The translations under genes were made by a program, and so were the position numbers. A stretch of DNA of 63,978 nt from Octopus sinensis (lineage: Eukaryota): assembly GCF_006345805.1 (NCBI RefSeq), contig NW_021832000.1, forward strand, positions 1-63,978, written 5' to 3'. Positions 53 through 29,431 of this stretch are shown here, piece by piece. The notes under the pieces are model-generated. The model saw nothing but the letters and a program-made list of their open reading frames with translations, had not been told where the DNA came from and ran no database searches. The number at the start of each line of letters is the position of its first letter. The stretch's first letter is position 1.

Positions 53-103
53 CATATTGTTTTGAACAGAGTTGGGTCCTTTTGGCAAAATCTCTTCCAT
101 AAT
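53..103 (-). CDS. Candidate 51-nt phase 1-1 cassette exon DYGRDFAKRTQLCSKQY
   Basis: TATTCATTTCAG acceptor, GTGAGT donor, no stop. Confidence 0.65.
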
Positions 104-589
104 CTGAAATGAATATTTTCACGTATTACATTTTATTGTATGATTTGGTTATATTTCTTAATCTGTATTTTGGTATTCTTCGACATTTATATCTTAAATG
201 GTCAACGGATGATCACTATATCTTTGGTGAGTAACTCATACTGTTTAACACAATATTTAGAGCCTTCAAAATATGCGCAAATTTCCTATCTATCCCCTCT
301 GTATTCAGATATCCAGCATAATTTAACAAGATTGAAATTATTTAATTACCTCTTTAGAACAGTATTCTTCCTCTATGCCTTTCCTTTCATATCTCTCTGT
401 ATTTGAGCGAGTTTAATGTACAGATATAAGAGAGGAAAACTAAACTAATGAGAAACAGTGTTATAAAGAGATAATTACGTGAAGTAATTACAATATTGTT
501 AAATTATGTCGGATGTCACATTACAGTGCGGTGATATATATATATCAGTAATCAAGCGATCAGAGAGAATTCTGAGCGACATCATCACC

Positions 590-995
590 AAATGCAGATG
601 GAAGAAGTGTTGTATTACTCTTGAATAGTGTCCTGATGTCATATGGGCCGCATATCTTTTGTATCTTTTCGGAGAGGCCTTTCACATAAGGTAGACAGAC
701 TGTGGACAGTTTATTGGTTTCATCCTCTCTTTTCTTCATAATTGGAGTGGATAGTATGTTTTTGGGTAGTTGTTGCTTAATAGATTGTTACTTAGCGTGA
801 TCATTTCTTCGTTGTGGGTTTCACGATCGCTACTTATATTCTTTACTCGATGTTTTAGGCACTGAGCAATCCCTCTCTTTACACTGTAAGGATGGTGGGA
901 AATGAAGTTGATGTATCGTCCGGTAAAGGTCGGCTTGCGGTATACGGATGTTCTGAATCCATACTTGGTGCGTGTTATTAATACATCCAGGTTCG
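590..995 (-). mobile_element. Penelope-like element RT C-terminal fragment (copies at ~8305-8710 and ~18385-18785)
   Basis: LDVLITRT..FRTSVYRKPTFTGRYINFISHHPYSVKRGI...NNYP and LPYVKGLSEKIQK, typical of PLE RT. Confidence 0.85.
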
Positions 996-1676
996 AAATT
1001 TCCCTAAGGCACCTGATGAAGGCTGGAGGGTATATCAGACTAAACGTTGTGTTAACAACAAACAAGATGAGTTCTCATCTTTTAAATATCGAACTAGGCT
1101 CTCTAAAATGCCTTGTATCCTTTCTTCCTTCAATACGTGTGTCATTTCTTTGAATGCATTGGCTTGCTTTGCATCATACAGTCAGTATCTATATTTATGA
1201 ATGGGAAAGAGGCAATGGTTGTCTGTGCAACAGACGAAAGTCTTCCACTTGGATAAAGACAATGTTTAATGGATGTAGTGATAGATTTACAAGTCTTGAA
1301 GAAAGACAAGTGTTCAAACTCGGAATGCATTTCCTTGTACGTGAACAAGATAATGAGTGGCACCTGCTTGAATAACAACAACAATAACCAGTCAGTAAAC
1401 GTAGTAAAATGTAAAACAAACAAAATCATTAACTCACCTGAAAAAGTATAACATATTATATATCCCCGTTCAAAAAGAGAATATTCAATCTATTGTTTCT
1501 TCTAAATTATCCATTTTACCAACCATGTTAACTTGAGTGGATAATTTATGAAATGTCAGTAATATCGATCCCTTTAATATAATCAGTTTACAGCTAAAAC
1601 GTGCAATTGGAATTTAGGAATAGAACATATTCTTAATAATTCCTACGAACAAAATAGCTCAGGTAAACCTATTTAC

Positions 1677-1702
1677 CTGCTTGTTCTGAGACTTGGGAAA
1701 CC
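1677..1702 (-). other. 26-nt truncated cassette paralog GFPKSQNKQ (phase 1 to 0)
   Basis: TATTTATTTCAG acceptor, CAG|GTAAAT donor. Confidence 0.4.
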
Positions 1703-1807
1703 CTGAAATAAATATTTCAAGGTTTTTCAAATTTATAATAAAATATTTTAAATCTAGATATTAATAATATATATTTTATTATTGTGGGACTTTCTGATCA
1801 TCAATGG

Positions 1808-2150
1808 GCAGCCTGTGTATGGACAGCTGTGTATGCTACATAGTAGGGAAATGTATGTAGTGAACACAGAGGACGTGTAAAGGCTTGAACAAAATGGAAC
1901 CAGCATGCTCCACTGGATGGTCACTGTCAGTGTGCAGGTATAAAATGCTGACATGTTTTAAGATAAAAATCGAGAGTTATCACATGTATGTAGTACGCAA
2001 GACAGACGACTGTGCTAGTATGACCCTGTGATATGTATGAATAAGATCAGCTGTATAAAGAGCACCGATCTGTAAATGTGGAGAGAACCTCAAGAAAACT
2101 GGAAGGAAGTGTTGAGAAATGAGCTTCAGATCTTGAACCTGAGAGTCAAT
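1808..2150 (+). mobile_element. Degenerate RTE LINE 3' coding fragment (copies at ~9523-9868 and ~19599-19945)
   Basis: Aligns by eye to 39010-39360 of the RTE in this window (ATGCTACAT..AGT, CCAGCATGCTCC..TG, CAAGA.AGACGA.TG.GCT). Confidence 0.7.
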
Positions 2151-2699
2151 CGGTAGAAAAGCGGGTATCTTTAAGAGACATATGTTCCTCGACCAATGGG
2201 GGTGGATAGTATCTCAGAATAGGACGTGTCTTGGGTAGAGACCGCCCATCAAATACATTTTAGAAAGAACATCAGACGATAAATGATGAGGATGTATTCG
2301 ATTGTATTGTTATATGCAGCTAGTATTTATCTTGAAAGAGAAAGAGACAATGGTTTCTCAGCAGAAAACCAAAGTCATTACTTCGATAAAGACAATGCTT
2401 AGTGGATGGAACGATAAATTTAATGTTGTATCTAAGAAAAGACAACAGCAAAAATAAAAGTTTAAAACATTGTTAAAAGATATGAAGAGATAATATTTTG
2501 TAACAGCAACATCCGACATAATTCGTGATATAACAACTCAAATCTTCCTAATTTAACTAAAATATTGCACACAGTTCATACAACACCATTTCCAAAACGC
2601 TTCCGTCCCATTAATTGTCGATAAACACAGAAATAGCTACACCAGTCGTCTCGTTAGCTGAAAACACTGATATACACCAGTGGAGCTTAGTACTATAGA

Positions 2700-2911
2700 G
2701 AGAAATCCGTGATTATCTGGCAATGTTTAACTTGACCATTACAAAAGTCGTTAACACTAGAAGGAGATCAGATGTACAATTACAAACTGCACGGTGGAGA
2801 GATATCATATTGTACCCTGACTGCTACCACAATCCGCCGTACACAACAAAACGCAGCATTTTAGCAGTTCCTTGTGTGATGATTAACAAAATGAAAGAAT
2901 GGAATATCTGA
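2700..2911 (+). mobile_element. Possible very degenerate Penelope-like RT remnant (copy at ~10415-10626)
   Basis: LAMFNLTITK...SDV... and CYHNPPYTTKRSI loosely resemble FLDILI...TDIYYKPT...S.HP..TKRSI. Confidence 0.3.
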
Positions 2912-3369
2912 CGGGTTAGATCTGTATTTTTCACTGAGGCTATGACCAGCTACCTCTGGTTATAGATCTATTAAAGGGCTGAGTAGAAATTAAACTACAT
3001 GTGGTAAGATTTCTCTCTCCGACACATAATAGACATAAAAAATTGAGATAAGCCCGCCCCAGCACCAATTTTATCAGAGAATTAAGTAAATAACAATCGA
3101 ATAAACAAAACAGAAACGACTTTTTACTATTTTAGATAAATCAATTAATTACTGCACACCAATTTCTAATTACTGGACTAACTTCAAACAATCTGACACC
3201 GCGACATCAGGTATCCTGAAACATTGTACACTTGCACAAAACCTTATTAACTACATTTAACTGGTCATCTACATACTATTGCATAAACATATCCGAAATG
3301 ATACACAATAACTGACAATTAAGCATATATAAGCATGACGCAAATATAGATCAAACTGGAAGCATTGAA

Positions 3370-4470
3370 TCTGACGTTTGCCAGGAAGTTTCGAATATTC
3401 TCTTTCTTTTAACCCATTCCCATGTTTTCGTTTTCATCTTAATGCCCTTACAATTATTGGACAAACAGGCAGCGCACCAATGTCCAAAACTTTTATAAGT
3501 TTAAACCTAAACGTATGCATAGTTTCTCCTGCTACTTTGAACTTCACTTTGTTCTGCTGATCTTCCACAAATAACAGATTGTATTATTTATTTGCTTCAA
3601 GTCAAATTCTTCACAAAGTAATCAGTCCACCCAGGCTATCCAGAAATATTTGCATAACATTTTGGTCTCTACAAGTATTTTTATGTCATCCATGAATGTC
3701 TTGTCTGGTGCTTTCACTTGGGTCATTTCTTTTGAGCAGACTACTGATCTAAGTAACATCTCGAAACTGAAGGATTAATATTGTGCACCCTGCTCCAATT
3801 CCGATGACAGTCCCTGTAAAATGGTTTGTAATGAGCTGCCTTTTGAAATTGTTATAACAGCTCATCATCAGACCTTAAAATTGCCCCAGTATGTAAAAGA
3901 AGTTCATTGATTTCATCAATAAATTGTATGGTCCACAACCATATGCTTTAGAGCGATCGAGCCATACAACATTCCAATTACTTCAATTCTTCTTTTTGTG
4001 TTGATCCCAGTTTGACATTTCATGTCCTACAAACCAAGAAAGTCAGGGATTTCCAGTCATCTGAACACTTTCCATCACATATCAATTATTTTGTAGGTGT
4101 ATAGGTGATCTCTTAGCATGTACATCCACGTAAAGCTTGTCATTAAGGATTGAAACTAATTTCAATTGGCCAATTGATTGTGATTCAGATTCCTTTCAAA
4201 AGTGAACTCTTTCTGCCTTATATCAGTCATAAATCCCTTCAATTTTATACCACAAACCCTTACTATTATATAATGCTTATATAATGCAGTTTTTGCTCTT
4301 GCCCCCCTTCTTGCTGCAATCTCTCAGTTAAAAGTTTAATTCCTGACTTTCTTTGAGAATTTATTAGAAAGACATCAACGTTTCTTTTGCTTGTACCACA
4401 ATAAGATGCACCTAGGACACTTTATCAAGTGCTTTTAGGCAAGTATACCCTCATATAAAACCTAGAATGG
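3370..4470 (-). mobile_element. HERO/NeSL-like (RLE clade) non-LTR RT fossil; paralogs at ~11085-12250, ~14380-15535, ~21070-22000
   Basis: VVWLDRSKAYG near 3930-3970 and FMDD at 3685-3696; many stops and frameshifts. Confidence 0.75.
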
Positions 4471-5157
4471 TTAATTGAGATGTGTCTTCTATCCGTTCAT
4501 GACGTGGGAGCCTGGAAATCAGACGATATAGGATGAAGAGATTGTCAATTATTGTATAGTATCTTGCAACCAGTTTCTGTTTCGAAGTAAGAAATATAGA
4601 CAACAACTATCACAGAAGTAAGTTGGATAAGGGCAATGTGTAGCGTATGTAATAAAATATCTGTGAAATAAAACAGACTGCTTATACTTGAAATACCTTT
4701 CAAAGTACTTTTTTAGAAATATCAGCCAAAATAACAACATTAATCTATCATCAGCAAACATAATATAAAATGTAAAACAAAGAGAAATGTCATTAACACG
4801 AATGTTTATCGCTAAACAACTACAAATATTAGTTTTCTCTTCCAAAGTAAAATATTAAATCTATTGTCTTCGAAGTTATCCCTTTTACAAACCATGCTCA
4901 CCACATCGGATATTTTGTGAAATTACAATAATATCGATATGTTTTATTGGGTAAACTGGCAATATGACCATTCCGAAATATAATAATATCTGTTTCAACA
5001 CACGACTTCACATAAAAAATCTTGCACAACAAATATTTAATAGAATTATTATGCATCAAACTTTTCAAATGCAAAATTTGGATTGGAAGATGTTGTCAGT
5101 CATTCAGTAAAGTTAAAATTTACAGTAATCGATAAGGTAATGATATTTTATACTCAT

Positions 5158-5220
5158 CATCAAATGATTCTGTTTCAAGCATAGGAAAGTTTGGAGACAG
5201 TGTTGTTTGCGACTATGTGT
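5158..5220 (-). pseudogene. 63-nt dead cassette paralog
   Basis: Acceptor CCG, donor ATGAGT, in-frame TAG; paralog of 12921-12983. Confidence 0.5.
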
Positions 5221-6063
5221 CGGAAAAATATATTTTCAAGTTTTACATTTTACACTATAATATGATTATATCTATCAATCAAAAATATTCCATTACCGTA
5301 AGATATCTTTATTTTTAATGGTCAACGGCTGACCACTATGCTTTTGGTCAGCACGCTTTACAGATTCAATATAACAAAACTCTTTATTAAGAGCCACCAA
5401 AATATTAACTAATTTCGTTCTGAAGAAGAACTGACTTGGACAGTGACAACTCATCTAGTCCATAGGAGCCTGGAAATCTGACGATAAATGTCGGGGTTGT
5501 TGCCTGTGATTCACTTGCATCGTGCAACCTGTATCTTTCATGAAGTAAGAAAGGCAGATACCGATTATCACAGTAGCAAAGAAATGTTTTCTATTCGGGA
5601 AAAGACAATGTGTAGTGGATGTAATAATAAAATTACTACCAGTGTAACAAAACAGAGAGTTTACACTTGGAACGCATTTCATTGCAATTCTTCTAGATTA
5701 TGAGAAGCATCCGTTTAAATAGCAACAATAACAATAATAACCTTGAAGTAAACATGATAAAAAGTGTGACAAAAACAGCTGTCATTAACTCTAAATTTAT
5801 ATTCCTAAACAAATTAGCTTAGTTCTCTCTTTCTCAAAACTATACAAAATATATTCCCGTTTCAATTTTCCATTTTACAAACCACTCTAACCTCGTTGGA
5901 TATTTTGTGAACTTTCAGTAATATCGATATATTGAATAGAATTATTATACAACATTTCGAATCTAATTAGGATAGAATCTGTACTCAGTCGTTCTAAAAT
6001 ACAAAAGCTCGGGAGAAGGTGAAATGTATAGAAATCGGTAAATTAATATCATTTCATACTTAC

Positions 6064-6150
6064 AATCATTCTCTGATTGGTCTACTCCAGAATACGATTT
6101 AAAACCGGAATCGGTACTGGCTCCCGATACCATACTTCCTGTTGAATGTT
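6064..6150 (-). CDS. Candidate 87-nt phase 1-1 cassette exon EHSTGSMVSGASTDSGFKSYSGVDQSEND
   Basis: TATTCATTTCAG acceptor, GTAAGT donor, no stop. Confidence 0.7.
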
Positions 6151-6599
6151 CTGAAATGAATATTTTCAAGATTTGCGTTGTATAGGATGATGTGCTTATC
6201 TTTGTTAATAATCTATATTTCACAATTGTGACATATTTCTATTTTCAATTGTCAGCGACTGACCACTATGCTTTTGGTCAGCACGTTTTACAGTTTCAAT
6301 ATAACAAAACTCTATATTAAGAGCAACCAAAATATTAACTAATTTCCTATCTATACTCTTTGTATTCAGATATCAAATATAATTCAACAATATTGTAATT
6401 ATTTATTTCATCATTGTCTCTTTATAACAGAATTTTGCTTTTAGTTTTCTCTTTCCTTCCGTATTTCTCTGATTCTCAGGGTGTTTAAGGCACATGTATA
6501 AAGAGAAGATAACTCAACTACTGAAAAACACTGCTATAAAGAGATAATTACGTGAAGTAATTGCAATATTGTTAAATTATGTTGGATGTCACAATACAT

Positions 6600-6900
6600 T
6601 GCGTTGATATATGAAGGTTGGTCTCAAAACGAAGCCGGATTGGACCAATCGCATAAACCTCTTCAACAACACCTTTTTACCTGCAATTTACAACAGGTGT
6701 GAAAGCTGGTACACGACGAAGAGGGAGGGTGTGAGTCTGATAATGGCCCAAAACACAATCGAAAAATCGAGGTTTGGGAGTGTTGCTAAATTTGCACATC
6801 AAGAGTGAGGCGATCAGAGAGAAATCCGGTGTGAGAGACATCATCACTAAAAACTTATGCCAAAATTTCAGATAGGACAGGTAGCCAGCTCCCTGAAAAT
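6600..6900 (+). mobile_element. Degenerate RTE-type LINE 3' fragment (copies at ~13430-13730 and ~16680-16980)
   Basis: LFNNTFLPAIYNRCESW.T...SEAIREKSGVRDII resembles the RTE C-terminus (LP.L.YG.E.W...IR....V.DI). Confidence 0.65.
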
Positions 6901-7768
6901 ATTTAGAGATGCACAGTTGTTGAGAGTTATATACACGAGCAGAGGAGGTCACTGAGAGCGAATCCAAAAGTGAGTATTTGACGAAATACGACATCCTACG
7001 TAGGTGAGAAGGTCAAGATGAAGACAGAAGTGGAGGGTGCACTGTGATCTCTGGTGTCGTCAATACACTCAGTCAGTCGATCATGGTCAAGGTGGTATTT
7101 CTGTCACATCTATGACATAGCGTTTTCACCTCTACCATAGTAAACCTCACGAACCAAACTTCTCGTTTTCTGCTCAACTCAAATGCCAAGCAAGTGGATA
7201 ACCATATATCGATCTTCAAAAACTGGTTGCACCACTTATAGTTAGAAAAAAAGCACCAGCTCTCTCTGTGAAACATTGATTCTGGAAATTTTTGATTTTA
7301 ACTGCCCACATCAACCTGCGTAGTTGTGACGCATCTATGACATGGCGTTTTCACATCTACAGTAGAACTCACTAATCAAACAATCTTATAATTTTCTGCT
7401 CACTTCCAGTGTCAACAAAGTTAATCATCAAATATCTATCTTCAAATTCATTTCACTTTAGACTACAAACACCTACTCTCTCTCTGTGAAACATTGCTGC
7501 TGGTAATCTTTAATTTTAACTGCCCACATCTACGTTCACCAGAATGTCATCTCATGTAGAAAATATTTGAAGACCCCTGAATGAAATAGATTTCATCCCA
7601 AGTGAGTAATGATTAATTCTACACAGGCGTAGAGGAAAGAAATATCAGATGTCCCCCAAAACTGTGAACACCTAATGTACTTCATACAAGGTCATGGTAA
7701 ATTTACTATCAGTGAAATATGACAGAATCTTTATGGAAATCGATGAGGTAATATAATTTTAAACTCAC

Positions 7769-7819
7769 CATATTGTTTTGAACTGAGTTGGGTCCTTTTG
7801 GCAAAATCTCTTCCATAAT
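7769..7819 (-). CDS. Candidate 51-nt phase 1-1 cassette exon DYGRDFAKRTQLSSKQY
   Basis: TATTCATTTCAG acceptor, GTGAGT donor, no stop. Confidence 0.65.
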
Positions 7820-9391
7820 CTGAAATGAATATTTTCACGTATTACATTTTATTGTATGATTTGGTTATATTTCTTAATCTGTATTTTGGTATTCTTCGAC
7901 ATTTATATCTTAAATGGTCAACGGATGATCACTATATCTTTGGTGAGTAACTCATACTGTTTAACACAATATTTAGAGCCTTCAAAATATGCGCAAATTT
8001 CCTATCTATCCCCTCTGTATTCAGATATCCAGCATAATTTAACAAGATTGAAATTATTTAATTACCTCTTTAGAACAGTATTCTTCCTCTATGCCTTTCC
8101 TTTCATATCTCTCTGTATTTGAGCGAGTTTAATGTACAGATATAAGAGAGGAAAACTAAACTAATGAGAAACAGTGTTATAAAGAGATAATTACGTGAAG
8201 TAATTACAATATTGTTAAATTATGTCGGATGTCACATTACAGTGCGGTGATATATATATATCAGTAATCAAGCGATCAGAGAGAATTCTGAGCGACATCA
8301 TCACCAAATGCAGATGGAAGAAGTGTTGTATTACTCTTGAATAGTGTCCTGATGTCATATGGGCCGCATATCTTTTGTATCTTTTCGGAGAGGCCTTTCA
8401 CATAAGGTAGACAGACTGTGGACAGTTTATTGGTTTCATCCTCTCTTTTCTTCATAATTGGAGTGGATAGTATGTTTTTGGGTAGTTGTTGCTTAATAGA
8501 TTGTTACTTAGCGTGATCATTTCTTCGTTGTGGGTTTCACGATCGCTACTTATATTCTTTACTCGATGTTTTAGGCACTGAGCAATCCCTCTCTTTACAC
8601 TGTAAGGATGGTGGGAAATGAAGTTGATGTATCGTCCGGTAAAGGTCGGCTTGCGGTATACGGATGTTCTGAATCCATACTTGGTGCGTGTTATTAATAC
8701 CTCCAGGTTCGAAATTTCCTCAAGACACCTGATGAAGGCTGGAGGGTATATCAGCCTAAACGTTGTGTTAACAACAAACAAGATGAGTTCTCATCTTTTA
8801 AATATCGAACTAGGCTCTCTAAAATGCCTTGTATCCTTTCTTCCTTCAATACGTGTGTCATTTCTTTGAATGCATTGGCTTGCTTTGCATCATACAGTCA
8901 GTATCTATATTTATGAATGGAAAGTGGCGATGGTAGTCTGTGCAACAGACGAAAATCTTCCACTTGGATAAAGACAATGTTTAATGGATGTAATGATAGA
9001 TTTACAAGTCTTGAAGAAAGACAAGTATTCAAACTCGGAATGCATTTCCTTGTACGTGAACAAGATAATGAGTGGCACCTGCTTGAATAACAACAACAAT
9101 AACCAGTCAGTAAACGTAGTAAAATGTAAAGCAAGCAAAATATTTAACTCACCTGAAAAAGAATAACATATTATATATCCCCGTTCAAAAAGAGAATATT
9201 CAATCTATTGTTTCTTCTAAATTATCCATTTTACCAACCATGTTAACTTGAGTGGATAATTTATGAAATGTCAGTAATATCGATCCCTTTAATATAATCA
9301 GTTTACAGCTAAAACATGCAATTGAAATTTATGAATAGAACACATTCTTAATAATTGTGACAAACAAAATAGCTCAGGTAAACCTATTTAC

Positions 9392-9417
9392 CTGCTTGTT
9401 CTGAGACTTGGGAAACC
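9392..9417 (-). other. 26-nt truncated cassette paralog GFPKSQNKQ (phase 1 to 0)
   Basis: TATTTATTTCAG acceptor, CAG|GTAAAT donor. Confidence 0.4.
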
Positions 9418-12400
9418 CTGAAATAAATATTTCAAGGTTTTTAAAATTTATTATAAAATATTTTAAATCTAGATATTAATAATATATATTTTATTATTGT
9501 GGGACTTTCTGATCACCAATGGGCAGCCTGTGTATGAACAGCTGTGTAAGCTACATAGTAGTGAAATGTATGTAGTGAACACAGAAGACGTTTAAAGGCG
9601 TGAACAAAATGGAACCAGCACGCTCCACTGGATGGTGACTGTCAGCGTGCAGGTATAAAATGCTGACACGTTTTAAGATAAAAGTCGAGAGTTATCACAT
9701 GTATGTAGTACGCAAGACAGACGACTGTGCTAGTATGGCCATGTGATATGTATGAATAAGATCAGCTGTATAAAGAGCACCGATCTGTAAATGTGGAGAG
9801 AACCTCAAGAAAAATGGAAGGAAGTGTTGAGAAATGAGCTTCAGATCTTGAACCTGAGAGTCAATCGGTAGAAAAGCGGGTATCTTTAAGAGACATATGT
9901 CCCTCAACCAATGGGGGTGGATAGTATCTCAGAATAGGACGTGTCTTGTGTAGAGACCGCCCATCCAATGCATTTTAGACAGAAAATCAGACGATAAATG
10001 ATGAGGATGTATTCGATTGTATTGTTATATGCAGCTAGTATTTATCTTGAAAGAGTGAGAGACAATGGTTTCTCAGCAGAAAACCAAAGTCATTACTTTG
10101 ATAAATACAATGCTTAGTAGATGGAACGATAAATTTAATGTTGTATCTAAGAAAAGACAACAGCAAAAATAAAAGTTTAAAACATTGTTAAAAGATATGA
10201 AGAGATAATATTTTTTAACAGCAACATCCGACATAATTCGTGATATAACAACTCAAATCTTCCTAATTTAACTAAAATATTGCACACAGTTCCTACAACA
10301 CCATTTCCAAAACGCTTCCGTCCCATTAATTGTCGATAAACACAGAAATAGCTACACCAGTCGTCCCGCAAGCTGAAAACACTGATATACACCAGTGGAG
10401 CTTAGTACTATAGAGAGAAATCCGTGGTATTCTGGCAATGTTTAATTTGACCATTACAAAAGTCGTTAACACTAGAAGGAGTTCAGATGTACAATTACAA
10501 ACTGCACGGTGGAGAGATATCATATTCTACCCTGACTGCTACCACAATCCGCCGTACACAACAAAACGAGACATTTTAGCAGTTCCTTGTGTGATGATTA
10601 ACAAAATGAAAGAATGGAATATCTGACGGGTTAGATCTGTATTTTTCACTGAGGCTATGACCAGCTACCTCTGGTTATAGATCTATTAAAGGGCTGAGTA
10701 GAAATTAAACTACTTGTGGTAAGAATTCTCTCTCCGACACAAAATAGACATACAAAATTGAGATAAGCCCGCCCCAGCACCAATTTTATCAGAGAATTAT
10801 GTAAATAACTATCGAATAAACAAAACATAAACGACTTTTTACTATTTTAGATAAATCAATTTCTGCACACCAATTTCTAATTGCTGGACTAACTTCAAAC
10901 AATCTGACACCGCGACATCAAGTATCCTGAAACATTGTACACTTGCACAAAACCTTATTAACTACATTTTACTGGTCATCTACATACTATTGCATAAACA
11001 TATCCGAAATGATACATAATAACTGACAATCAAGCATATATAAGCATGACGCAAATATAGATCAAACTGGAAGCATTGAATCTTACGTTTGCCAGCAAGT
11101 TTCGAATATTCTCTTTCTTTTAACCCATTCCCATGTTTTCGTTTTCATCTTAATGCCCTTACAATTATTGGACAAAGAGGCAGCGCAACACTATCTGAAA
11201 CTTTTATAAGTTTTTCCCTGAATGTATGCATGTATGCAGTGCCTCAGCATGGCCACAGCTCATGAGCTGAAACTAGAATCAATCAATCAATCAATCATAG
11301 TTTCTCCAGCTACTTTGAACTTCACTTTGTTCTGCTGATCTTCCACAAATAACAGATTGTATTATTTATTTGCTTCAAGTCAAATTCTTGACAAAGTAAT
11401 AAGTCCACCCAGGCTATCCAGAAATATTTGCATAACATTTTGGTCTCTACATAGTATTTTTATGTCATCCATGAATGTCTTGTCTTGTTCTTTCACTTGG
11501 GTCATTTCTTCTGAGCAGACTACTGATCTAGGTAACATCTCGAAACTGAAGGATTAATATTGTGCACCCTGCTCCAATTCCGATGACAGTCCCTGTAAAA
11601 TGGTTTGTAATGAGCTGCCTTTTGAAATTGTTATACCAGCTCATCATCAGACCTTCACACTGCCCCAGTATGTCAAAGAAGTTCATTGATTTCATCAATA
11701 AATTGTATGGTACCCAACCATATGCTTTAGAGCGATCAAGGCATACAACATTCCAATTACTTCAATTCTTCTTTGTGTGTTGATCCCAGTTTGACATCTC
11801 ATGTCCTTCAAACCAAGAAAGTCAGCGGATTCCAGTCATCTGCACACTTTCCATCACATATCAATTATTTTGTAGTTGTATAGGTGATCTCTTAGCATGT
11901 ACATCCACGTAAAGCATGTCATTAAGGATTGAAACTAATTTCAATTGGCCAATTAATTGTGATTCAGATTCCTTTCATACGTGAACTCAGTCATAAATCC
12001 CTTCAATTTTATACTACAAACCCTTACTATTATATAATGCTTATATAATGCAGTTTTTGCTCTTGCCTCCTTCTTGCTGCAATCTCTCAGTTAAAAGTTT
12101 AATTCCTGACTTTCTTTGGGGTTTTATTAGAAATACATCAACGTTTCTTTTGCTTGTACCACAATAAAATGCACCTAGGACACTTTATCAAATGGTTTGT
12201 TTTAGGAAATTATACCCTCATATAAAACCTAGAATGGTTAACTGAGATTTGTCTGCTATCCGATCAAGAGGTGGGAGCATGGAAATCAGACGATAAAGGA
12301 TGAAGAGATAGTCAATTATTGTATAGTATCTTGCAACCAGTATCTGTTTTGAAGTAAGAGATATAGAACAACTATCACAGAAGTAAGTTGGATAAGGGCA

Positions 12401-12920
12401 ATGTTTAGCGGATGTAATGAAATATCTGTGAAATAAATCAGACTGCTTATACTTGAAATACATTTCAAAGTACTTTTTTAGAAATATCAGCCAAAATAAC
12501 AATATTAATCTATCAGCAAACATAATATAAAATGTAAAACAAAGAGAAATGTCATTAACACGAATGTTTATCGCTAAACAACTACAAATATTAGTTTTCT
12601 CTTCCAAAGTGAAATATAAAATCTATTGTCTTCCAAGTTATCCATTTTACAAACCATGCTCACCACATCGGATATTTTGTGAAATTACAATAATATCGAT
12701 ATGTTTTATTGGCTAAACTGGCAAAATGACCATTCCGAAATATAATAATATCTGTTTCAACACACGACTTCACATAAAAAAATCTTGCACAACAAATATT
12801 TAATAGAATTATTATGCATCAAACTTTTCAAATGCAAAATGTGGATTGGAAGATGTTGTCAGTCATTCAGTAAAGTTAAAATTTACAGTAATCGATAAGG
12901 TAATGATATTTTATACTCAT

Positions 12921-12983
12921 GATCAAATGATTCTGTTTCAAGCATAGGAAAGTTTGGAGACAGTATTGTTTGCGACTATGTGT
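12921..12983 (-). pseudogene. 63-nt dead cassette paralog
   Basis: Homologous flanks; acceptor CCG, donor ATGAGT, in-frame TAG. Confidence 0.5.
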
Positions 12984-15900: not shown

Positions 15901-16204
15901 TGTGACAAAAACGGCTGTCATTAACTCTAAATTTATGTTCCTAAACAAATTAGCTTAGTTCTATCTTTCTCAAAACTATACAAAATATATTCCCGTTTCA
16001 ATTTTCCATGTTAAAAACCACTCTAACTTCGTTGGATATTTTGTGAAATTTCAATAATATCGATATATTGAATAGAATTATTATACAACAAACCTTTCGA
16101 ATCTAATTAGGGATAGAATCTGTACTCAGTCGTTCTAACATACAAAAGCTCGAGATAAATTGAAATGTATAGAAATCGGTAACTTAATATTATTTCATAC
16201 TTAC

Positions 16205-16291
16205 ATCCTTCCTCTGATTCATCTACTCCAGAAGATGATTGTAAACCGGAATCGGTACTGGCTCCGGGTACTATACTTGCTGTTGAATGTT
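16205..16291 (-). CDS. Candidate 87-nt phase 1-1 cassette exon EHSTASIVPGASTDSGLQSSSGVDESEEG
   Basis: TATTCATTTCAG acceptor, GTAAGT donor, no stop. Confidence 0.7.
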
Positions 16292-17842
16292 CTGAAATGA
16301 ATATTTTCAAGATTTGCGTTGTATAGCATGATGTGCTTATCTTTGTTAATAATCTATATTTCACTATTGTGACTTATTTCTATTGTCAATGGCTATATAA
16401 AGGGCCACCAAAATATTAACTAATTTCCTCTCTTTACTCTCTGTATTCAGATATCAAATATAATTTAACAATATTGTAATTATTTAATTTCATTGTCTCT
16501 TTATAACAATATTTTGCTTTTAGTTTTCTCTTTCCTTCCGTATTTCTCTGATTTTCAGGAAGTTTAAGGCACAGGTATAAAAAGAGGATAACTCAACTAC
16601 TGAAAAACATTGCTATAAATAGATAATTACGTGAAGTAATTGCAATATTGTTAAATTATGTTGGATGTCACAATACATTGCATTGATATATGAAAGTTGG
16701 TCTCAAAACGAAGTCGGATTGAACCAATCACATAAACCTCTTCAACAACACCTATTTACCGGCAATTTACAACAGGTGTGAAAGCTGGTACACAACGAAG
16801 ATGGAGGATGTGAGTCTGATAATGGCCCAAAGCACAATCGAAAAATCGAGGTTTGGGAGTGTTGCTAAATTTGCACATCAAGAGTGAGGCGATCAGAGGG
16901 AAATCAGGTGTGAGAGACATCATCACTAAAAACTTATGACAAAATTTCAGATGGGACAGGTAACCAGCTCACTGAAAATATTTAGAGATGCACAGTTGTT
17001 GAGAGTTATATACACGAGCAGAGGAGGTCACTGAGAGCGAATCCAAAAGTGAGTGTTTGACGAAATACGACATGCGACATAGGTGAGAAGGTCAAGATGA
17101 AGACAGAAGTGGAGGGTGCACTGTAAACTCTGGTGACTTCAATACACTCAGTCAGTCGATCATGGTCAAGGTGGTATTTCTGTCACATTTATGACATAAC
17201 GTTTTCACCTCTACCGTAGTAAACCTCACAAACCAAACTTCTCGTTTTCTGCTCAACTCCAATGTCAAGCAAGTGGATAACCATATATCTATCTACAAAA
17301 ACTGGTCACACCACTTACCGTTAGACAGAAAGTACCTGCTCTCTGTGAAATATTGCTTCTGGTAATCTTTGATTTTAACTGCCCACATCAACGTGCGTAT
17401 TTGTGACGCATCTATGACATGGCGTTTTCACATCTACAGTAGAACTCACTAATCAAACAATCTTATAATTTTCTGCTCACTTCCAGTGTCAACAAGGTTA
17501 ATCATCAAATATCTGTCTTCAAATTCCTTTCACTTTAGATACAAACACCTACTCGCTGTGTGAAACATTGCTGCTGGTAATCTTTAATTCTAACTGCCCA
17601 CATCTACGTTCACCAGAATGTCATCTCATGTAGAAAATATTTGAAGACCCCTGAATGACATAGATTTCATCCCAAGTGAGGAATAATTAATTCTACACAG
17701 GTCTAGGAGAAAGAAATATCAGATGTCCCCCAAAACTGTTACCACCTAATTTACTTCATATAAGTTCATGGTAAATTTACTATCAGTGAAACATGACGGA
17801 ATCTTTATGGAAATCGATGAGGTAATATAATTTTAAACTCAT

Positions 17843-17893
17843 CATAATGTTTTAAACTGGGTTGGGTCCTTTTGGCGAAATCTCTTCCATAAT
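17843..17893 (-). pseudogene. 51-nt cassette paralog DYGRDFAKRTQPSLKHY with dead donor
   Basis: Acceptor intact; donor reads ATGAGT where the paralogs at 53 and 7769 have GTGAGT. Confidence 0.6.
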
Positions 17894-19467
17894 CTGAAAT
17901 GAATATTTTCACGTATTACATTTTATTGTATGATTTGGTTTTAGTTCTTAATCTATATTTTGATATTATTCGACATTTTTTTCTTAAATGGTCAACGGAT
18001 GACCACTATATCTTTGGTGAGCAACTCATACTGTTTAACACATTAATTAGAGCCTTCAAAATATGCGCAGATTTCCTATCTATCCCCTCTGTATTCAGAT
18101 ATCCAGCATGTTTTAACAAGATTGAAATTATTTAATTACCTCTTTATAACAGTATTCTTCCTCTATGCCTTTCCTTTCATATCTCTCTGCATTTGAGTGA
18201 GTTTAAAGTACAGATATAAGAGAAGAAAACTAAACTAATGAGAAACAGTGTTATAAAGAGATAATTACGTGAAGTAATTGCAATATTGTTTAATTATGTC
18301 GGATGTCACATTACAGTTCGGTGATATATATATCTGTAATCAAGCGATCAGAGAGAATTCTGGTGTGAGCGACATCATCACCAAATGCTGAAGGAAGAAG
18401 TGTGGTTTTACTCTTGAATAGTGTCCCGATGTCATATGGGCCGCATATCTTTTGTATCTTTTCGGAGAGGCCTTTCACATAAGGTAGACAGACTGGACAG
18501 TTTATTGGTTTCATCCTCTCTTTTCTTCATAATTGGAGTGGATAGTATGTGTTTGGGTAGTTGTTGCTTAATAGATTGTTACTTAGCGTGATCATTTCTT
18601 CGTTGTGGGTTTCACGATCGCTACTTATATTCTTTACTCGATGTTTTAGGCACTGAGCAATCCCTCTCTTTACACTGTAAGGATGGTGGGAAATGAAGTT
18701 GATGTATCGTCCGGTAAAGGTCGGCTTGCGGTATACGGATGTTCTGAATCCATACTTGGTGCGTGTTATTAATACCTCCAGGTTCGAAATTTCCTCAAGA
18801 CACCTGATGAAGGCTGGAGGGTATATCAGCCTAAACGTTGTGTTAACAACAAACAAGATGAGTTCTCGTCTCTTAAATATTGAACTAGGCTATCTAAAAT
18901 GTTCAGTATCCTGTCTTCCTTCAATACGTGTGTCATTTCTTTGAATGCATTGGCTTGCATTGCATCATACAGTCAGTATCTATATTTATGAATGGGAAAG
19001 TGGCGATGGTAGTCTGTGCAACAGACGAAAATCTTCCACTTGGACAAAGACAATCTTTAATGGATGTAGTGATAGATTTCCTCGTCGTGAAGAAAGAAAA
19101 GTGTTCAAACTTGGAATGCATTTCCTTGTAAGTGAACCAGATAATGAGAGGCACCTGCTTGAATAGCAACAACAATAACCAGTCAGTAAACGTAGTAAAA
19201 TGTAAAACAAACAAAATCTTTTACTCACGTGATAAAGTATAACATATTATATATCCCCGTTCAAAAAGAGAATATTCAATCTATTGTGTCTTCCAAATTA
19301 TCCATTTTACCAAACATGTTAACTTGAGTGGTTAAATTATGAAATGTCAGTAATATCGATCCCTTTAATTTAATTAGTTTACAGTTAAAACGTGCAATTG
19401 GAATTTAGGAATAGAACATATTCTTAATAATTCCTACGAACAAAATAGCTCAGGTAAACCTATTTAC

Positions 19468-19493
19468 CTGCTTGCTCTGAGATTTGGGAAACA
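19468..19493 (-). other. 26-nt truncated cassette paralog VFPKSQSKQ (phase 1 to 0)
   Basis: Same TATTTATTTCAG acceptor context, CAG|GTAAAT donor. Confidence 0.4.
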
Positions 19494-22400
19494 CTGAAAT
19501 AAATATTTCAAGGTTTTTCAAATTTATAATAAAATATTTTAAATCTAGATATTAATAATATATATTTTATTATTGTGGGACTTTCTGATCACCAATGGGC
19601 AGCCTGTGTATGGACAGCTGTGTAAGCTACATAGTAGTGAAATGTATGTAGTGAACACAGAGGACGTGTAAAGGCTTGAACAAAATGGAACCAGCATGCT
19701 CCACTGGATGGTCACTGTCAGTGTGCAGGTATAAAATGCTGACACGTTTTAAGATAAAAGTCGAGAGTTATCACATGTATGTAGTACGCAAGACAGACGA
19801 CTGTGCTAGTATGACCATGTGATGTGTATGAATAAGATCAGCTGTATAAAGAGCACCGATCTGTAAATGTGGAGAGAACCTCAAGAAAACTGGAAGGAAG
19901 TGTTGAGAAATGAGCTTCAGATCTTGAACCTGAGAGTCAATCGGTATGTAAAAGAAGTTTATTGATTTCATCAATAATTTGTTTGGTACACAAGACGTCC
20001 CTGAAACCTGACACCTCTGCTCCTCTTATTGACAGCGGGAAAAAAAACCTTTGACAACTTGTTTAGTTTTGGCCACCAGCTCAACTTTGGTATTGCAGTC
20101 AGAGCGAATGGTATATTTCTCAACCGTGTCCCATACAAACTAATCAATGAGATTTCAATCAGGGAAACTAGGAAGTTTACAAATGGGTCCACTAAAACTG
20201 CATAAGTACTCAGACAACCACTTCAGATGTATGGTAAGGAGCCGAATCCTACTGCCACGCATAAGGCCTTGCAACTGTGTCTAAATACAGGAAATCCCTT
20301 TCCAACCTGCAGTTCCCTTCCAATCCTCCATGTCAGCTAACCTGTTTATAATTGCCAGACTATCCTTTCGCCAATGGTCAACTGGTGACCCCTAAGGGTT
20401 TGTTTAACATTTTTATACTTTCTACAGTGTTACTATACCCTAGCTCAATGTTTAGGTCTACAACGAAATAGACTAACAAACCTTATTCTACTCTGTTTAT
20501 TGAGACATACTACATAATCTAACAATTCAACAATAATCTCATATAATTATCACTTGATAACGCTCTTCCTTTCTAAGTTGAGCATTTCTTTTCTTATATC
20601 TGTGACAGTATTGATGAGATGGCATTTTCTCCCTCACATCTAGATATCGCTTTCTGGCATTCTTTTATTCATCCACTTAATTCCGTTATCAACCAAGTCC
20701 GTCAACAAAACTCGAACCGCAAACACATGATACCCCACTCCAAGTAGGATCATACACCTGCTCTCTTTCTTAAACATTCATGCTGCAGTTAACCAGAATG
20801 TCATCTGATTAAGGAAATACTTGAAGACATTTGAATGTCATACGTCTTCCTTAATGAAGCAGTTTTCTTTCCGCATGAGCGAAGATAAATTCTACACAGT
20901 AGAGCAGAAGATTAATAACAACTGTCCTAAAAAAACTATACACTTGTAACACATGTTATTATCTATATACAACTTGTCATCGACATATTATTATGATGAA
21001 TATATCTGAAATGGTACATTGCAAATGATTCTCAAGTATATATAAGAAAGACGGAGACACAGATCAAACAGCAAGCCACAAATCTGTTATTTGCCCAGAT
21101 ATTTTGGTTTTTCTCCCGCTTCAAACTCTTCCTTGGTTTGTGCCATGATCTCAATGCGTCTACTCTTCACAGACAACAAACTAGCGTACCATCCTCTAAA
21201 TCATTTTACAACTTTCTTTTTAATCCTTCACAAAGAATACCCAGCTATTTTGAAATTTACTTCCTCCTGCTAACATTAAACAAACGACAGAATGAATTCT
21301 TTGCTTCATACCCGATTCTTGACCAAGAAATTAGTTCGTCCATACCATCCAGAAATATTTACATAACTTTTTGGTCTCTTGTTAGTATTCTTAGGTAATC
21401 AATTAATGCCTTCTTCGGTGATGTCAATAGAGCCCTATCTTCTGATCAATCTGCTGATCTAAGTAACATCCCCATAATAAGCACAAACCAAATGAATGAT
21501 ATGCAAAGTATAGCTATTCCAGTTTCAAGACGAAGCCAGCCTCTTGTAAAACACTCTTGTAAAATGTCATTTTTAAGATTCCTATAGCAACTCCTCATCA
21601 TATCTGTTATCTTCTCCCATATATAAAATAACTCTGTTGCTTCCTCAATTATTTCTGTGATACAGAATATGAAGTATTAGCCAGATCAAGTCATACAACA
21701 TGCAAATCCATTTTGTTGTTTTTGTGTTAAGTCCTATAGACAATATTTTGTAGATATAGAGTTGGTCTCTCAGCAAGTACACCTAAGCAAATCTTGGTAT
21801 TTATACTCAAAGATTGAAATTGTTCTAAAGTGATCGATCAGCTTTGTATTAGCGTCCATTGGTAAGTAATCTCCTTCTGCCTTGAACCAATCATCAACCG
21901 ATCCACTTTTTTGCTACAACTCTCAAAGTAATAGGTAAAGATTGTGATATAATTGTGGATAAAACTTGTATACTTTGTATGATAGTCCATTTCCTCGTTG
22001 GATGCCTTTTGCTCTTGTTTTCTTCATACAACTATCTGCATGATTCTTGTTGAAATCATTGTTGATTCCTAGCTTCATTCCGTGTTTGAAACCGTCCATC
22101 ACTGGGAACTACTGATCTTACTCTGGGTCAATGTAGGGCTCCTGTATATACCTGTCCAATTCATCTTCTGTAACTTATACACTACTTCACTTAGCATCTG
22201 CAAATAGAGTCTATTAACCTCATAACGTTACTGAAGGAGATTTTCTCTAATCCATTTATCATCATTCCCTCTATCAGCATGTCTGATATTTCTTTTTAAA
22301 GTAAGAATAAAGGTTTAAGATGTTGAACAGATGATCATTTTTCTAATGGTTATAGCATGATCAAATGCACTTAGGACCATTGTCCGTTCTAATTCCAGTG

Positions 22401-22765
22401 CCTGGAGTTAGAACGGGCATACCACCTTAGGAAAGCTGGAATGTTTAAGTGAGATGCGTTCCTCAACCAAGGAAGGTAGTCGGTAATTCTTAAGGGGAGA
22501 AAAACCGCTCAAGGGTGTATATTTTATCTTTTGTATCTTTTCCTGATCGTGTGAGATCTTTTTCTTGTGTCATATGTTTCTATATTTCCAAAAGATCCAT
22601 TTATTGGATATTCCTGCATTTGAAGTAGAACAGAATTACTTTGTAGCTAAATATTCGAATGAAATATAGCAATAGAACCGCTTCTCAGTGATTCACACAA
22701 ATTATTTAGTTCAGTTGGAGGTAAAATTTGTAGAAGTCAATTAGATACAGTTATTTTATACTCAC

Positions 22766-22816
22766 CAACTGGCTCTACCACTCTCTGGGATGCTTTCCCT
22801 TTAAACTTTGGACGCA
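22766..22816 (-). CDS. Candidate 51-nt phase 1-1 cassette exon VRPKFKGKASQRVVEPV
   Basis: TGTTTATTTCAG acceptor, GTGAGT donor, no stop. Confidence 0.7.
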
Positions 22817-24680: not shown

Positions 24681-25069
24681 ATGAGCAGGAATGTTAGTAC
24701 CGTAAGAAGGGTTCTTAAGGAGCTGCAACTTAAAGTGTTCACTATCCTTTCTTCTTTCAACCCGTCCGATGTCTCTTTGAATGTATTTGATTGTATTGTA
24801 TCATACAGCCTCTATGAAGTTTGAAGAAAGGGAAAGAGACAACGGTTTTCTGAGCAGCAAACCAACGTCTTCCACTTGAATAAAGACAATGTTTACTGGA
24901 TGCAATGATAGATTTATTATCAGTGACAAACGACAGAGTGTTCATATTTGGAACGCATTTCATTGTAAGTCTGACAGATTATGAGAGACATCAGCTAAAA
25001 TAACAACAATAACTTGTCAGTAAACATTTAAAAAATATAAAACAAACAAAACCTTTGTCATTACCTCAC

Positions 25070-25114
25070 CTGTTAAACCACAACATATATTATTTGGTTG
25101 TTCCAAAAGAGAAC
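25070..25114 (-). CDS. Candidate 45-nt phase 1-1 exon GSLLEQPNNICCGLT
   Basis: ATTTCAG acceptor with weak pyrimidine tract, GTGAGG donor; 75-nt intron to a last-exon paralog at 24994. Confidence 0.3.
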
Positions 25115-25343
25115 CTGAAATCTATTTTGCTTCTAATTTATCCATTTCACCAACCGTGCTAACATGATTGGATACTTTATTAAATGTCAATAATATCGAT
25201 ATGTTTAATATGATTAGTTTAATGCTAAAACTTCCCATTGAAAGGTAAGAATGGAAGCTGATCTTTATCATTCTGATATCAAAATAGTTCAGCAGAGAAT
25301 AAACCTTACAGAAATCAATCAAGTGCTGTTATTTTATACTCAC

Positions 25344-25394
25344 CTACAGGTTCAGCCAATGTCTGTGTTTCCTTGACTTCAAATGTTCGATTCA
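25344..25394 (-). CDS. Candidate 51-nt phase 1-1 cassette exon VNRTFEVKETQTLAEPV
   Basis: TATTTATTTCAG acceptor, GTGAGT donor, no stop. Confidence 0.7.
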
Positions 25395-26989: not shown

Positions 26990-27390
26990 TAATAAAAGTG
27001 ACAGGACCAGCAAGTTCAGGGAGGGAGTACATTGATTACATCGACCCCAGTGCACAACTGGTATTTTCCTATTGACCCTGAAGGAGTGAAAGGGCGAAGT
27101 CAACCTCGGCAGAATTTGAAATTAGAACCTAAAGACGGACGAAATGCAGTTAAGTGCATTAACGATTCTGCCAGGAGTCACCTCATCTATTATTTAATAA
27201 TATTAAAGCGGCGAACTAGCAGAATCGGTGGCGCGCCGAACAAAATGCCTAGTGGCGTTTCGTCCGTCTACACGTTCTGAGTTTAAAATTCCATTGAGGT
27301 TGTCTTTGCCTTTCATCCTTTCAGGCTTAATAAAATAAGTACCAGTTGTGTACTGGGGTCGATATACTCGACTCATTTCCTCCCCTGAAA
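26990..27390. mobile_element. Two SINE copies of one family in opposite orientation (~26990-27175 minus, ~27205-27390 plus)
   Basis: GACCCCAGT.CACAACTGGTA...GAAAGG.C.AAGTCAACCTC...GAATTTGAA on one side and its approximate reverse complement on the other; same family at 58345-58555. Confidence 0.75.
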
Positions 27391-27599
27391 ATTATCACAC
27401 AAGATCAATAAAAGGGCAGATATAAACCTATTTGGTAAAAAGGATCTTATTTTACATATAAAAATTTATATTTTAAATCATATTATTTTCATATTGAAAT
27501 GCTTATGGTATTAAAGTAAAACTCCTAATAACAATTTGAGATGTTATTGATTTACAATTCATTGATTAGATATTAACAGACAATTATCTAATTAGATCA

Positions 27600-28870
27600 T
27601 TATTATACGTTTTGTATTTTTGATTGTAAAAATAACTAGATATAAACGATGACAATCTCTTCTGGATGAGAGCAGATCCTCGGGGGCCAGCTTATAAAAC
27701 CTGGCTCTCCGTCCCAGGTGCTCAAACCAATCAGATAATGTTCTGTTAGGGCACCCGACAAGCATTGCAACAGATCGAGGAACGCCATGACCGAAGTCAT
27801 GCGTTGATTGGTGCATGAAATTAATAAATCTTGGTTTTCATCTGAGAGTTCAATGATACAACCAATGTACCAATCATTTTCATTCGTGTATCCAACATAT
27901 TCGCAGGACTTTAACTTTGAAATATCTTGCTCAGATGCTGGCCTCTCCTCACCTAAAAGAGTGAAATTGTCATCAGCTGATATCTTTTTCGTTAGAAGAT
28001 CAGATCTTGAAGAAGGAACGAAGCGGTGATGGGATCGTGTGCCAATTAATTTCACTGAGCTGCTGAATCGTGAAAGCAAGTCGAAGCTGTTTTCATGTCG
28101 GATGACATCGGCTGCCGACATGTCAAAGAACATTATCTCTGGAATGCTTGCACATGCTCAGCCATACATCTTGCAACCTGTGAGAAAATGTCTTTCCTGG
28201 TTGCTTGTAGACTTGCTTTTTCAGCAACACATTTCATCATACCACTGATTCCCTCATATGAACTTTTTCCACATGACATGGCAAAGAAATACGACTCCGC
28301 TTCAAGTCCTTGATCATTCTGATGATGACAGAGATTTGTTTGGTGTCTCTAGTTCTTGTATTGGTCGGCTGCACCGTCACTGAAGTACAGGAGATGGTTT
28401 ATGAATGGAAGTTCTGTCTTTATATGCGATATCACCCTCGTAATAAAAGCATGCACTGTGGTATTGTCACGTTTCAAACAATCAGATATGACACAGATTG
28501 AAGTGCATTGTGGGTTTGAACCAGTCTTATAACAGATCACGAATGGATGAATATATTGGCCTGGGAGTTGTTCCGATGAAACCCTTGCTCCGAATCCTTC
28601 ACTACAAAACTATAATTTTCTGCCAAGTCTGACAATACTGTTGCTTGATTTGATCTCAGATCATCTTTCTGATGAATAAGGAGACTAGTTTGAGCCTTTG
28701 CTATGAAATGGGGTTGATGCAGAGTATCAAACACACTTTCAGCGGTTTGAAGGAAATCATTCACTGGGGAAGTTAGGCACATCAGGGCTGCCCAGTCCAC
28801 ATAAATCCTCGTTACTAAATCCTCTGAGTCAAAATCACGTGATTAAAATATGTCCAACACTTCAGTCCAC
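27600..28870 (-). mobile_element. Degenerate DNA transposase, Sola2-like
   Basis: HFIAKAQ..., DLAENYSFVVKDSEQGFH, YFSDGAADQYKN and FFAMSCGKSSYEGISG match the DFxENY / SDG..xQYKN / HGK..DG.GG pattern I associate with Sola2; frameshifted. Confidence 0.6.
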
Positions 28871-28905
28871 ACAGCTGGCGAAAATAAGTAATTTTACAGC
28901 GGACT

Positions 28906-29266
28906 AAATCAAAATCAAAATCGATCAACATCAATGGAAATTGTAGCTTTGATACCAGTGCCGGTGGTACGTAAAAGAACCATCCGAACGTGGCCGTTGC
29001 CAGCGCCGCCCCGACTAGCCTCCGCGCCGCTGGCACGTAAAAAGCACCATCCAATCGTGACCGTTGCCAGCCTCGTCTGGCACCTGTACTGGTGGCACGT
29101 AAAAAGCACCCACTACATTCACGGAGTGGTTGGCGTTAGGAAGGGCATCCAGCCGTAGAAACACTGCCAGATCAGACTTGGCCTGGTGCAGCCTTCTGGC
29201 TTCCCAGTCCCCAGCTGAACCGTCCAACCCATGCTAGCATGGAAAGCAGACGTTAAATGATGATGA
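28906..29266 (+). mobile_element. 5'-truncated RTE 3'UTR copy
   Basis: Near match to 39570-39963: GGCACGTAAAAAGCACC repeats, CCGTCCAACCCATGCTAGCATGG, (GAT)n tail. Confidence 0.85.
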
Positions 29267-29380
29267 CTAGCGTCCTATTCATGGAAGAATATATAAGCCG
29301 GGGGAACCGGGAAACCAACCCTCTGCTTCTTATGGAGTAATGTGGTCTAACATAATTAGGTACAGTTATTTTCTACTCAC

Positions 29381-29431
29381 CAGGTGGTTCTGTCAACATC
29401 TGGACTTCCGGCTTTGACGACTTTGGACCCT
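29381..29431 (-). CDS. Candidate 51-nt phase 1-1 cassette exon EGPKSSKPEVQMLTEPP
   Basis: TTGTTTATTTCAG acceptor, GTGAGT donor, open in the phase left by the RING exon. Confidence 0.7.

Follow-up and report, generated by a model that had tools for sequence, protein, structure and literature searches.

Organization of the Locus

The window, i.e., the whole stretch of DNA analysed here (positions 1-63,978 of contig NW_021832000.1 of Octopus sinensis), contains an ankyrin-RING gene and, downstream of its RING exon, an array of short exons, called cassettes. The gene and the array, with all exons listed below, are located on the minus strand. Coding exon 1 (58723..58800) encodes residues 1-26 of protein P0001. 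The ankyrin region is built by exons at 49668..49826, 48496..48543 (short, with approximate ends), 46061..46216 (hypervariable between paralogs), 45045..45080 (short) and 41325..41534, and by a final exon at 35787..35963. The RING exon (PF13920; 32108..32250) ends in phase 1, as a preliminary description of this DNA had indicated. That description also proposed a possible short terminal exon at 32013..32029. RNA-type contigs ("RNA-type" being the guessed kind of run) cross this site unspliced, and none of the joints listed leads into it.

Two RefSeq models were found at this locus. Both follow one cassette chain in genomic order and differ in their last exon, which is the cassette at 53..103 in isoform X1 and a truncated cassette at 1659..1702, reading through to a stop, in isoform X2. 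The contig ends within the array, 52 bases beyond the cassette at 53..103, and no death-domain exon is present inside the 63,978-nt window.

The Cassette Array

Thirteen cassette sites make up the array, 11 with an intact acceptor and two as dead remnants. Seven of the sites are open exons, each with AG/GT ends, 51 or 87 nt long and in phase 1-1, and these are the seven stop-free exons that had been described. Cassette A (51 nt, 29381..29431) retains the glutamine of the LC8-type motif discussed below, in a degenerate core (KPEVQML). Cassette B (51 nt, 25344..25394) carries a complete KxTQT motif (VKETQTL), as the only one of the seven open cassettes. In cassette C (51 nt, 22766..22816), the +1 threonine is substituted (GKASQRV; DKASQTE in paralogs). 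Cassette H (87 nt, 16205..16291; open copy of 87 nt at 6064..6150) is serine-rich and has no motif, and cassette Y (51 nt, 7769..7819; open 51-nt copy at 53..103) has a partial one (KRTQL). The glutamine reported at codon 11 of the four 51-nt types is indeed found in all four.

The other six of the 13 cassettes are unusable. One copy of Y (17843..17893) has a dead donor (AT instead of GT). Three F exons are cut to 26 nt, namely those at 19468..19493 (truncated where a duplication breakpoint lies; paralogs carry an open 72-nt version), 9392..9417 and the one within 1659..1702. The two remnants, with approximate ends, have lost both acceptor and donor (12921..12987 and 5158..5220). The proposed figure of at least 13 paralogous micro-exons agrees with this count of sites. 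Only six exon types occur in the window because the distal ten cassettes sit in segmental duplicates.

The recurrent acceptor context noted earlier was reproduced, with nine strict matches on the minus strand versus none on the plus strand. A position weight matrix gave 11 sites at 28-37 bits and a next best site at 11 bits, a partly circular separation, as the matrix was trained on six of the scored sites. Genome-wide, the acceptor-N51-donor pattern has 29 exact matches (one being an unrelated chance match) and the acceptor-N72-donor pattern has 57, versus none for either reversed-pattern control.

Tandem segmental duplicates with a Y-H-F unit, recognized by sequence identity, occupy positions 1..19954. 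Positions 1-3520 and 7717-11231 are 97% identical, and positions 6312-9876 and 16393-19954 are 94% identical. The distal ten cassettes lie inside these 7.7-kb and 10-kb duplicates (94-97% identity). An assembly artefact is ruled out because a second contig (G000:C12277) repeats the same layout, matching positions 865-17727 at 98.9% identity, and the differences are mostly substitutions. This copy is a chimeric, partly decayed version of the family, and most of its cassettes no longer have the motif. The distal ten probably arose as side effects when the locus recombined and was segmentally duplicated, and they would add spacer length only.

Splicing of the Cassettes

GT-AG joints in the RNA-type contigs connect A-B, B-B, B-C, C-C, B-DD1, Y-H (7769 to 6150), H-Y and H-F. 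The A-B joint was present in four of four runs and the Y-H joint in one of four. These calls rest on exact exon ends, the first joint set comprised 15 of 352 joints listed, dominated by repeats, and most of the observed joints carry paralog variants. Together with the cassettes in the RefSeq models, the cassette-to-cassette joints indicate that the cassettes are spliced, as had been supposed. The joints listed from contigs include neither a C-to-H joint nor one that starts at the RING exon, and none of them skips a live cassette; the missing RING-to-cassette, RING-to-32029 and C-to-H joints were not counted as evidence. At the annotation level, cassettes are left out in varying combinations from the isoforms of 13 of the 15 family loci (chains read by eye), NW_021832000.1 not being one of them. 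These annotated skips may partly result from short-read cross-mapping between near-identical paralogs.

The strong form of the preliminary description was a Dscam-like, mutually exclusive variable tail. Dscam1 is known for its mutually exclusive clusters of exons, and the octopus cassettes resemble these in being tandemly duplicated, paralogous and symmetric, i.e., frame-preserving. However, cassettes are joined directly to each other and the models chain several of them per transcript, which contradicts a mutually exclusive choice at the family level and makes this form highly improbable. Combinatorial inclusion, the other option proposed, is what the annotation across the family displays. 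In contrast to those of Dscam1, the octopus cassettes are chained and skipped and code for short linkers rather than binding domains, and diversity resides in gene copies. Nor is the array a variable C-terminal tail: it is a linker, and the family owes its sequence diversity to the ankyrin repeats, which are hypervariable across paralogs.

The Octopus Protein Family

The layout of the family is ankyrin repeats, RING, linker and death domain, with one subfamily ending in a 1,618-aa propeller-like exon. The constant downstream domain that had been suspected is thus present in paralogs. PF00531 scored above the cut-off in four of the six paralogs scanned and is absent from both NW_021832000.1 models, whose contig ends inside the array. 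No Pfam domain was found over the linker in the proteins scanned, and Pfam and PDB searches with the giant propeller-like exon returned nothing useful. Among solved structures, the death domain of a paralog is closest to those of RIPK1, TRADD and ankyrin, a weak similarity (E 2e-4 to 6e-4). Named matches to the family come from O. sinensis, O. vulgaris and O. bimaculoides. A search of representative proteins with a whole protein as query was dominated by the ankyrin repeats. Neither the family nor the linker is described in the literature that our search covered, although supplements of genome papers could list the expansion.

The protein is annotated as an E3 ligase, a putative activity. With its ankyrin repeats ahead of a C3HC4 RING, it resembles the C-terminal half of MIB2 (ankyrin-RING-RING; PMC7815719). 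The retained RING matches MIB2 RING1 by position. According to that source, human MIB2 can ubiquitylate cFLIP without RING1 but needs the second RING to do so, and it acts on RIPK1 and cFLIP. Each of the eight octopus proteins scanned has one RING stretch; a second RING was found only in an octopus relative, P0221, with 40% identity to the protein of the window. In the octopus family, the place of the second RING is taken by the linker and the death domain. The octopus models also differ from MIB2 (PMC7815719) by the absence of the N-terminal MIB/zinc-finger region, for which no Pfam match was obtained in any of the eight proteins scanned.

Origin of the Cassettes

The linker exons and the first exon of the death domain have common splice flanks, phase and register, and one acceptor/donor pattern retrieves both kinds of exon genome-wide. 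The linker consensus S-P-K-F-E-[ED]-K-x-V-Q-T-V-A aligns in register with that of death-domain exon 1, S-P-K-L-E-E-K-x-L-[QHL]-[RD]-V-A. On this sequence evidence, death-domain exon 1 is the likely source from which the linker exons were copied. The direction of copying, from death-domain exon to linker, is presumed, the exon tree being midpoint-rooted.

A Candidate LC8-Binding Motif

The LC8/DYNLL consensus is [DS]-K-x-[TVI]-Q-[TV]-[DE], as quoted from PMC3078936, and LC8 is encoded in the octopus genome, at G000:C25:12066054. The conserved glutamine lies within a [TVI]QT core in 32 of 84 linker peptides versus none of 25 death-domain exons. When scored over positions -4 to +2, four of the 84 linkers match the consensus at six of six positions and 18 at five. 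Many cassettes are therefore likely to carry a candidate LC8/DYNLL docking site, as judged from sequence. Part of the match is inherited, because K-3 and Q0 already occur in some death-domain exons (16/25 and 8/25, respectively).

Whether the core is under selection depends on the exons considered. Across all 86 live linkers, it shows no greater conservation than the codons around it (omega 0.63 vs. 0.68, p = 0.37). Selection on the motif becomes significant only after post hoc exclusion of the 166-bp micro-array clade (omega 0.36 vs. 0.65, rank test p = 0.011). In the reduced set, Gln0 is the least changed codon (three nonsynonymous and five synonymous changes). In the 34 excluded exons, the core changes fastest (1.62 vs. 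0.76).

It is rather unlikely, in our view, that duplicated death-domain exons merely decayed to a tolerated flexible linker, with the TQT likeness accidentally inherited and the skipping due to noise or mis-mapping. The lack of motif-specific conservation across all linkers speaks for such a neutral spacer, as do the numerous dead or degenerate copies, the omega of 0.94 in the micro-array clade, the members entirely without an xQT cassette (P0006) and the largely degenerate state of the NW_021832000.1 locus. However, the core is held by 13-15 of 21 deep linker lineages. The figure of 15 of 21 compares with 22% under a neutral star-tree null, which leaves out shared ancestry and general constraint, and neutral drift from the death-domain exon yields the core in 0.06% of simulations. 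In O. bimaculoides, K-x-V-Q-T is kept in four of five cassettes despite divergent flanks. Two further points argue against neutrality: the glutamine codon toggles between CAA and CAG, and conservation has shifted to Gln0 from the positions that form the helix-face pattern in the death domain (L-1, V+2, L-6).

The cassettes could instead serve a different partner, either as functional short motifs, such as phospho-sites or TRAF-type sites, or as modules of set length, such as a ruler that spaces the RING from the death domain. LC8 would then be a look-alike, which seems quite improbable. This reading would agree with the exact length classes (51/72/78) and the frame being retained even without QT, and with the glutamine being kept in lineages without the +1 threonine (KPEVQML, GKASQRV). 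Against it, positions -4 to +2 are close to the LC8 consensus and include perfect matches, LC8 being the sole motif compared.

Proposed Function of the Linker

The explanation to which we lean, as a somewhat better than even proposition, is a linker with LC8 docking sites. Its cassettes are chained by splicing and lie between the RING and the death domain or propeller-like exon. They were likely copied from the first death-domain exon, and many would offer one LC8/DYNLL site each. Optional skipping would set the number of LC8 dimers clamping two protein copies, and so adjust the strength of pairing between these probable immune sensors. Binding of LC8 by the cassettes, and its effect on dimerization or signalling, are predicted here.

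Two known systems are comparable. ASCIZ/ATMIN-type multivalent LC8 clients (PMC5963919; motif from PMC3078936 and PMC12057147) likewise have a low-complexity linker with xQT motifs in tandem, and occupancy could grade activity. In octopus, by contrast, there is one predicted motif per exon, the number changing as exons are duplicated or skipped, and a folded-domain exon appears to be the source of these exons. The alternative exon B of myosin Va, described in PMC3613824 as required for light-chain binding, is likewise a small alternative exon that switches binding of the LC8 family, a binding only predicted in octopus. It is a single on/off exon, whereas the octopus array has up to seven, in a large gene family.

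More tentatively, and with less than an even chance, the genes could form an undescribed family of octopus innate-immune receptors. These would combine a hypervariable ankyrin sensor with a RING and with an LC8 clamp that is tuned by splicing and descends from a duplicated death-domain exon. Their effector ends, a death domain or a multi-propeller of 1,600 aa, would be interchangeable. Recombination would reshuffle these parts across dozens of loci, and exon choice would set the threshold for oligomerization in death-domain signalling. The immune role is putative. The proposed LC8 linker would make it possible to trace how a short binding motif was born from a duplicated domain exon and amplified exon by exon, giving control of valency via splicing. 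The automatic label "MIB2-like" also seems to hide a large octopus family of candidate immune sensors.

Cassette array and its duplication

The gene lies on the minus strand of the window, which spans the entire contig. Past the RING exon (32250-32108), 13 sites for short linker exons (cassettes) follow, all on the minus strand: A (29431), B (25394), C (22816), a truncated F (19493), a Y copy with a dead donor (17893), H (16291), a remnant, a truncated F (9417), Y (7819), H (6150), a second remnant, a truncated F (1702) and Y (103). Eleven have intact acceptors, and in the two remnants, located between H 16291 and F 9417 and between H 6150 and F 1702, acceptor and donor are both dead. The seven exons named in the preliminary description are all present, stop-free and in phase 1-1.

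The distal ten cassettes go back to 7.7-kb and 10-kb tandem duplicates (94-97% identity), and the F truncation coincides exactly with the duplication breakpoints. A second contig (C12277) matches window 865-17727 at 98.9%, lacks B and C and carries one additional H; the duplications are thus real, and cassette number varies at the DNA level. Window 22489-32384 matches a member of the family ending in a death domain and 1675-18754 one ending in a giant propeller-like exon, which makes the locus a chimera. The family is of more interest than this partly decayed copy.

An intronic, stop-broken element resembling a non-LTR retrotransposon (endonuclease and reverse transcriptase, from reading the ORFs) occupies 36244-39430 on the plus strand. 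Short reverse-transcriptase-like fragments (736-1074, 8452-8790, 18527-18889) were copied along with the duplication. Also intronic are a TC-rich satellite of 122 bp in 24.6 copies (51954-54951) and a CAT tract of 280 copies (48615-49460).

Gene family and C-terminal modules

Both RefSeq models of the gene, labelled Octopus sinensis 'MIB2-like' (XP_036354791.1 and XP_029654765.1), chain RING-A-B-C-H-Y-H and differ solely in the last exon. Candidate copies of the RING exon number 95 in the genome (29 of the 40 scored at 84% or above), and those of one ankyrin exon 136 (40 scored, at 88% or above). Many paralog models (P0003, P0009, P0023 and others) have an optional 16-residue exon directly before the RING; it is absent from both models of this contig.

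Paralog proteins are ordered as ankyrin, RING, short repeats and death domain, the best solved-structure matches of the latter being RIPK1, ankyrin-3 and TRADD (E 2e-4 to 6e-4). The fetched stretches of four contigs carrying the F type (three also H) gave no death-domain match. About 3.3 kb past their last cassette, these contigs have one exon that reaches 1,618 codons in length (1619-6472, minus strand, of the stretch from C12623; also C8321, C9449 and C9206) and is spliced to that cassette in RefSeq model P0076. By language-model features, its first 560 residues are similar to NHL-repeat proteins of molluscs (scores 0.91-0.92), a likeness that is a lead, NHL being annotated on 27-52% of the members behind the match. 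A Pfam search of this exon gave no match, no full-length protein record was found for it, and some copies are frameshifted. It forms an alternative C-terminus of the family, its NHL/propeller-like character being the lead.

Intact copies of the ankyrin exon at window 46061-46216 are present at 27 of 30 loci (L119-L147), 26 of them unique. pN is 0.129 and pS 0.098, against 0.014 (1.4%) in the flanking intron; the exon is hypervariable at a few codons, with up to eight residues each, and these are presumably binding-face positions. Judged by sequence, it shows the pattern of diversifying selection on a putative recognition protein.

A relative with two RINGs (P0221, ankyrin-RING-RING), 40% identical to the window protein, is a candidate ancestral form and suggests descent of the family from the C-terminal half of MIB2. 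It shares a chromosome with death-domain members. In human MIB2, ubiquitylation of cFLIP needed the second RING, according to PMC7815719, so that ligase activity of the octopus family is not assured.

Origin of the cassettes

Genome-wide, one exact acceptor-plus-donor pattern finds the linker exons and, with them, the death domain's 72-nt first exon (controls, 0), and their peptides align in register. In a midpoint-rooted tree built from 132 unique exons and their flanks (136-nt alignment), the 29 death-domain exons cluster with one degenerate offshoot, separate from the linkers with the xQT core. Since the death domain is ancient, the linkers are probably copies of its first exon.

Splicing

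Joints were read from contigs of six sequencing runs, presumed by guess to be RNA. With GT-AG ends, A-B was found in four of four runs and Y-H in one of four; B-B appeared in one run. Further joints (B-C, H-F, H-Y, C-C and B to death-domain exon 1) show paralog variants at the joint or loose ends. Such cassette-to-cassette joints contradict, at the family level, the proposed mutually exclusive, Dscam-type choice of one exon among many. Combinatorial splicing, proposed as the other option, is annotated in the family: on reading the isoform models by eye, collinear skipping separates them at 13 of 15 loci with several isoforms, two further loci being excluded for their fragmentary models. The window locus belongs to the remaining two, where no skipping is annotated. 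At the most variable loci, 12 models gave 10 chains and the 14 models read gave 11 subsets; collinear skipping is annotated in O. bimaculoides too. The RNA-type contigs showed no skipped live cassette. Cross-mapping among paralogs may be an alternative source of annotated skips. That some of them are real is suggested by the annotated joins of RING to C and of A to C, given that a B-type exon precedes C at all six genomic loci where C was found.

At 31300-32137, RNA-type contigs from four of four runs read on past the end of the RING exon into intron sequence with no splice; pre-mRNA is one possible source, and a short isoform with ankyrin and RING only, as in model P0016, another.

A putative LC8 motif in the linker

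The published LC8/DYNLL motif is [DS]-K-x-[TVI]-Q-[TV]-[DE] (PMC3078936), and LC8 pairs two client chains (PMC12057147). Of 84 unique, stop-free linker peptides (some from exons whose donor is dead), 62 carry the codon-11 Gln and 32 the [TVI]QT core, versus 8 and 0 of 25 death-domain exons. Simulated neutral drift from the death-domain exon yields the core in 0.06% of simulations. Of the 21 linker lineages, 15 hold it (13 under a majority criterion, by-eye count), where a neutral star tree, a null that flatters the result, predicts 22%. In an O. bimaculoides member, four of five cassettes retain K-x-V-Q-T; in the window, only cassette B has the full motif.

The main rival reading, that the linker is a tolerated spacer and its motifs accidental, seems to us the less likely one. 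The codon tests, which are stricter, give a mixed answer. Over all 86 live linkers, omega is 0.63 at the core and 0.68 at its neighbours (p=0.37). Over the 52 outside the 166-bp micro-array clade, removed post hoc after data inspection, it is 0.36 against 0.65 (p=0.011), and over the 34 removed linkers 1.62 against 0.76.

Micro-arrays of three to seven cassettes at 150-166 bp spacing occur at C27:15807865-15808825, C10645, C10744, C12372 and elsewhere. In them Gln and Lys alternate at the anchor position, and Thr and Ala at +1, possibly by on/off switching of putative sites or by gene conversion. Seven tandem cassettes at C1899:3042-15591, the last of them truncated where the contig stops, all contain E-K-E-I-Q-T. 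Dynein light chain (PF01221) has 22 genome matches, many intronless, and LC8 itself looks expanded in the octopus genome.

In the literature surveyed, including PMC3424572 and PMC8917759 and represented mostly by listing entries, no description of the family or linker was found. The component parts are each known separately, in other systems: multivalent LC8 clients share the multiple-site part (PMC5963919), and in myosin Va a light-chain site is switched by splicing (PMC3613824). We lean towards a sensor-RING-linker-effector protein whose linker would tune valency. Each linker exon would offer one putative LC8 site, giving 0 to ~7 per linker; exon duplication and skipping would set this valency, which may in turn set the ease of pairing and hence death-domain signalling.
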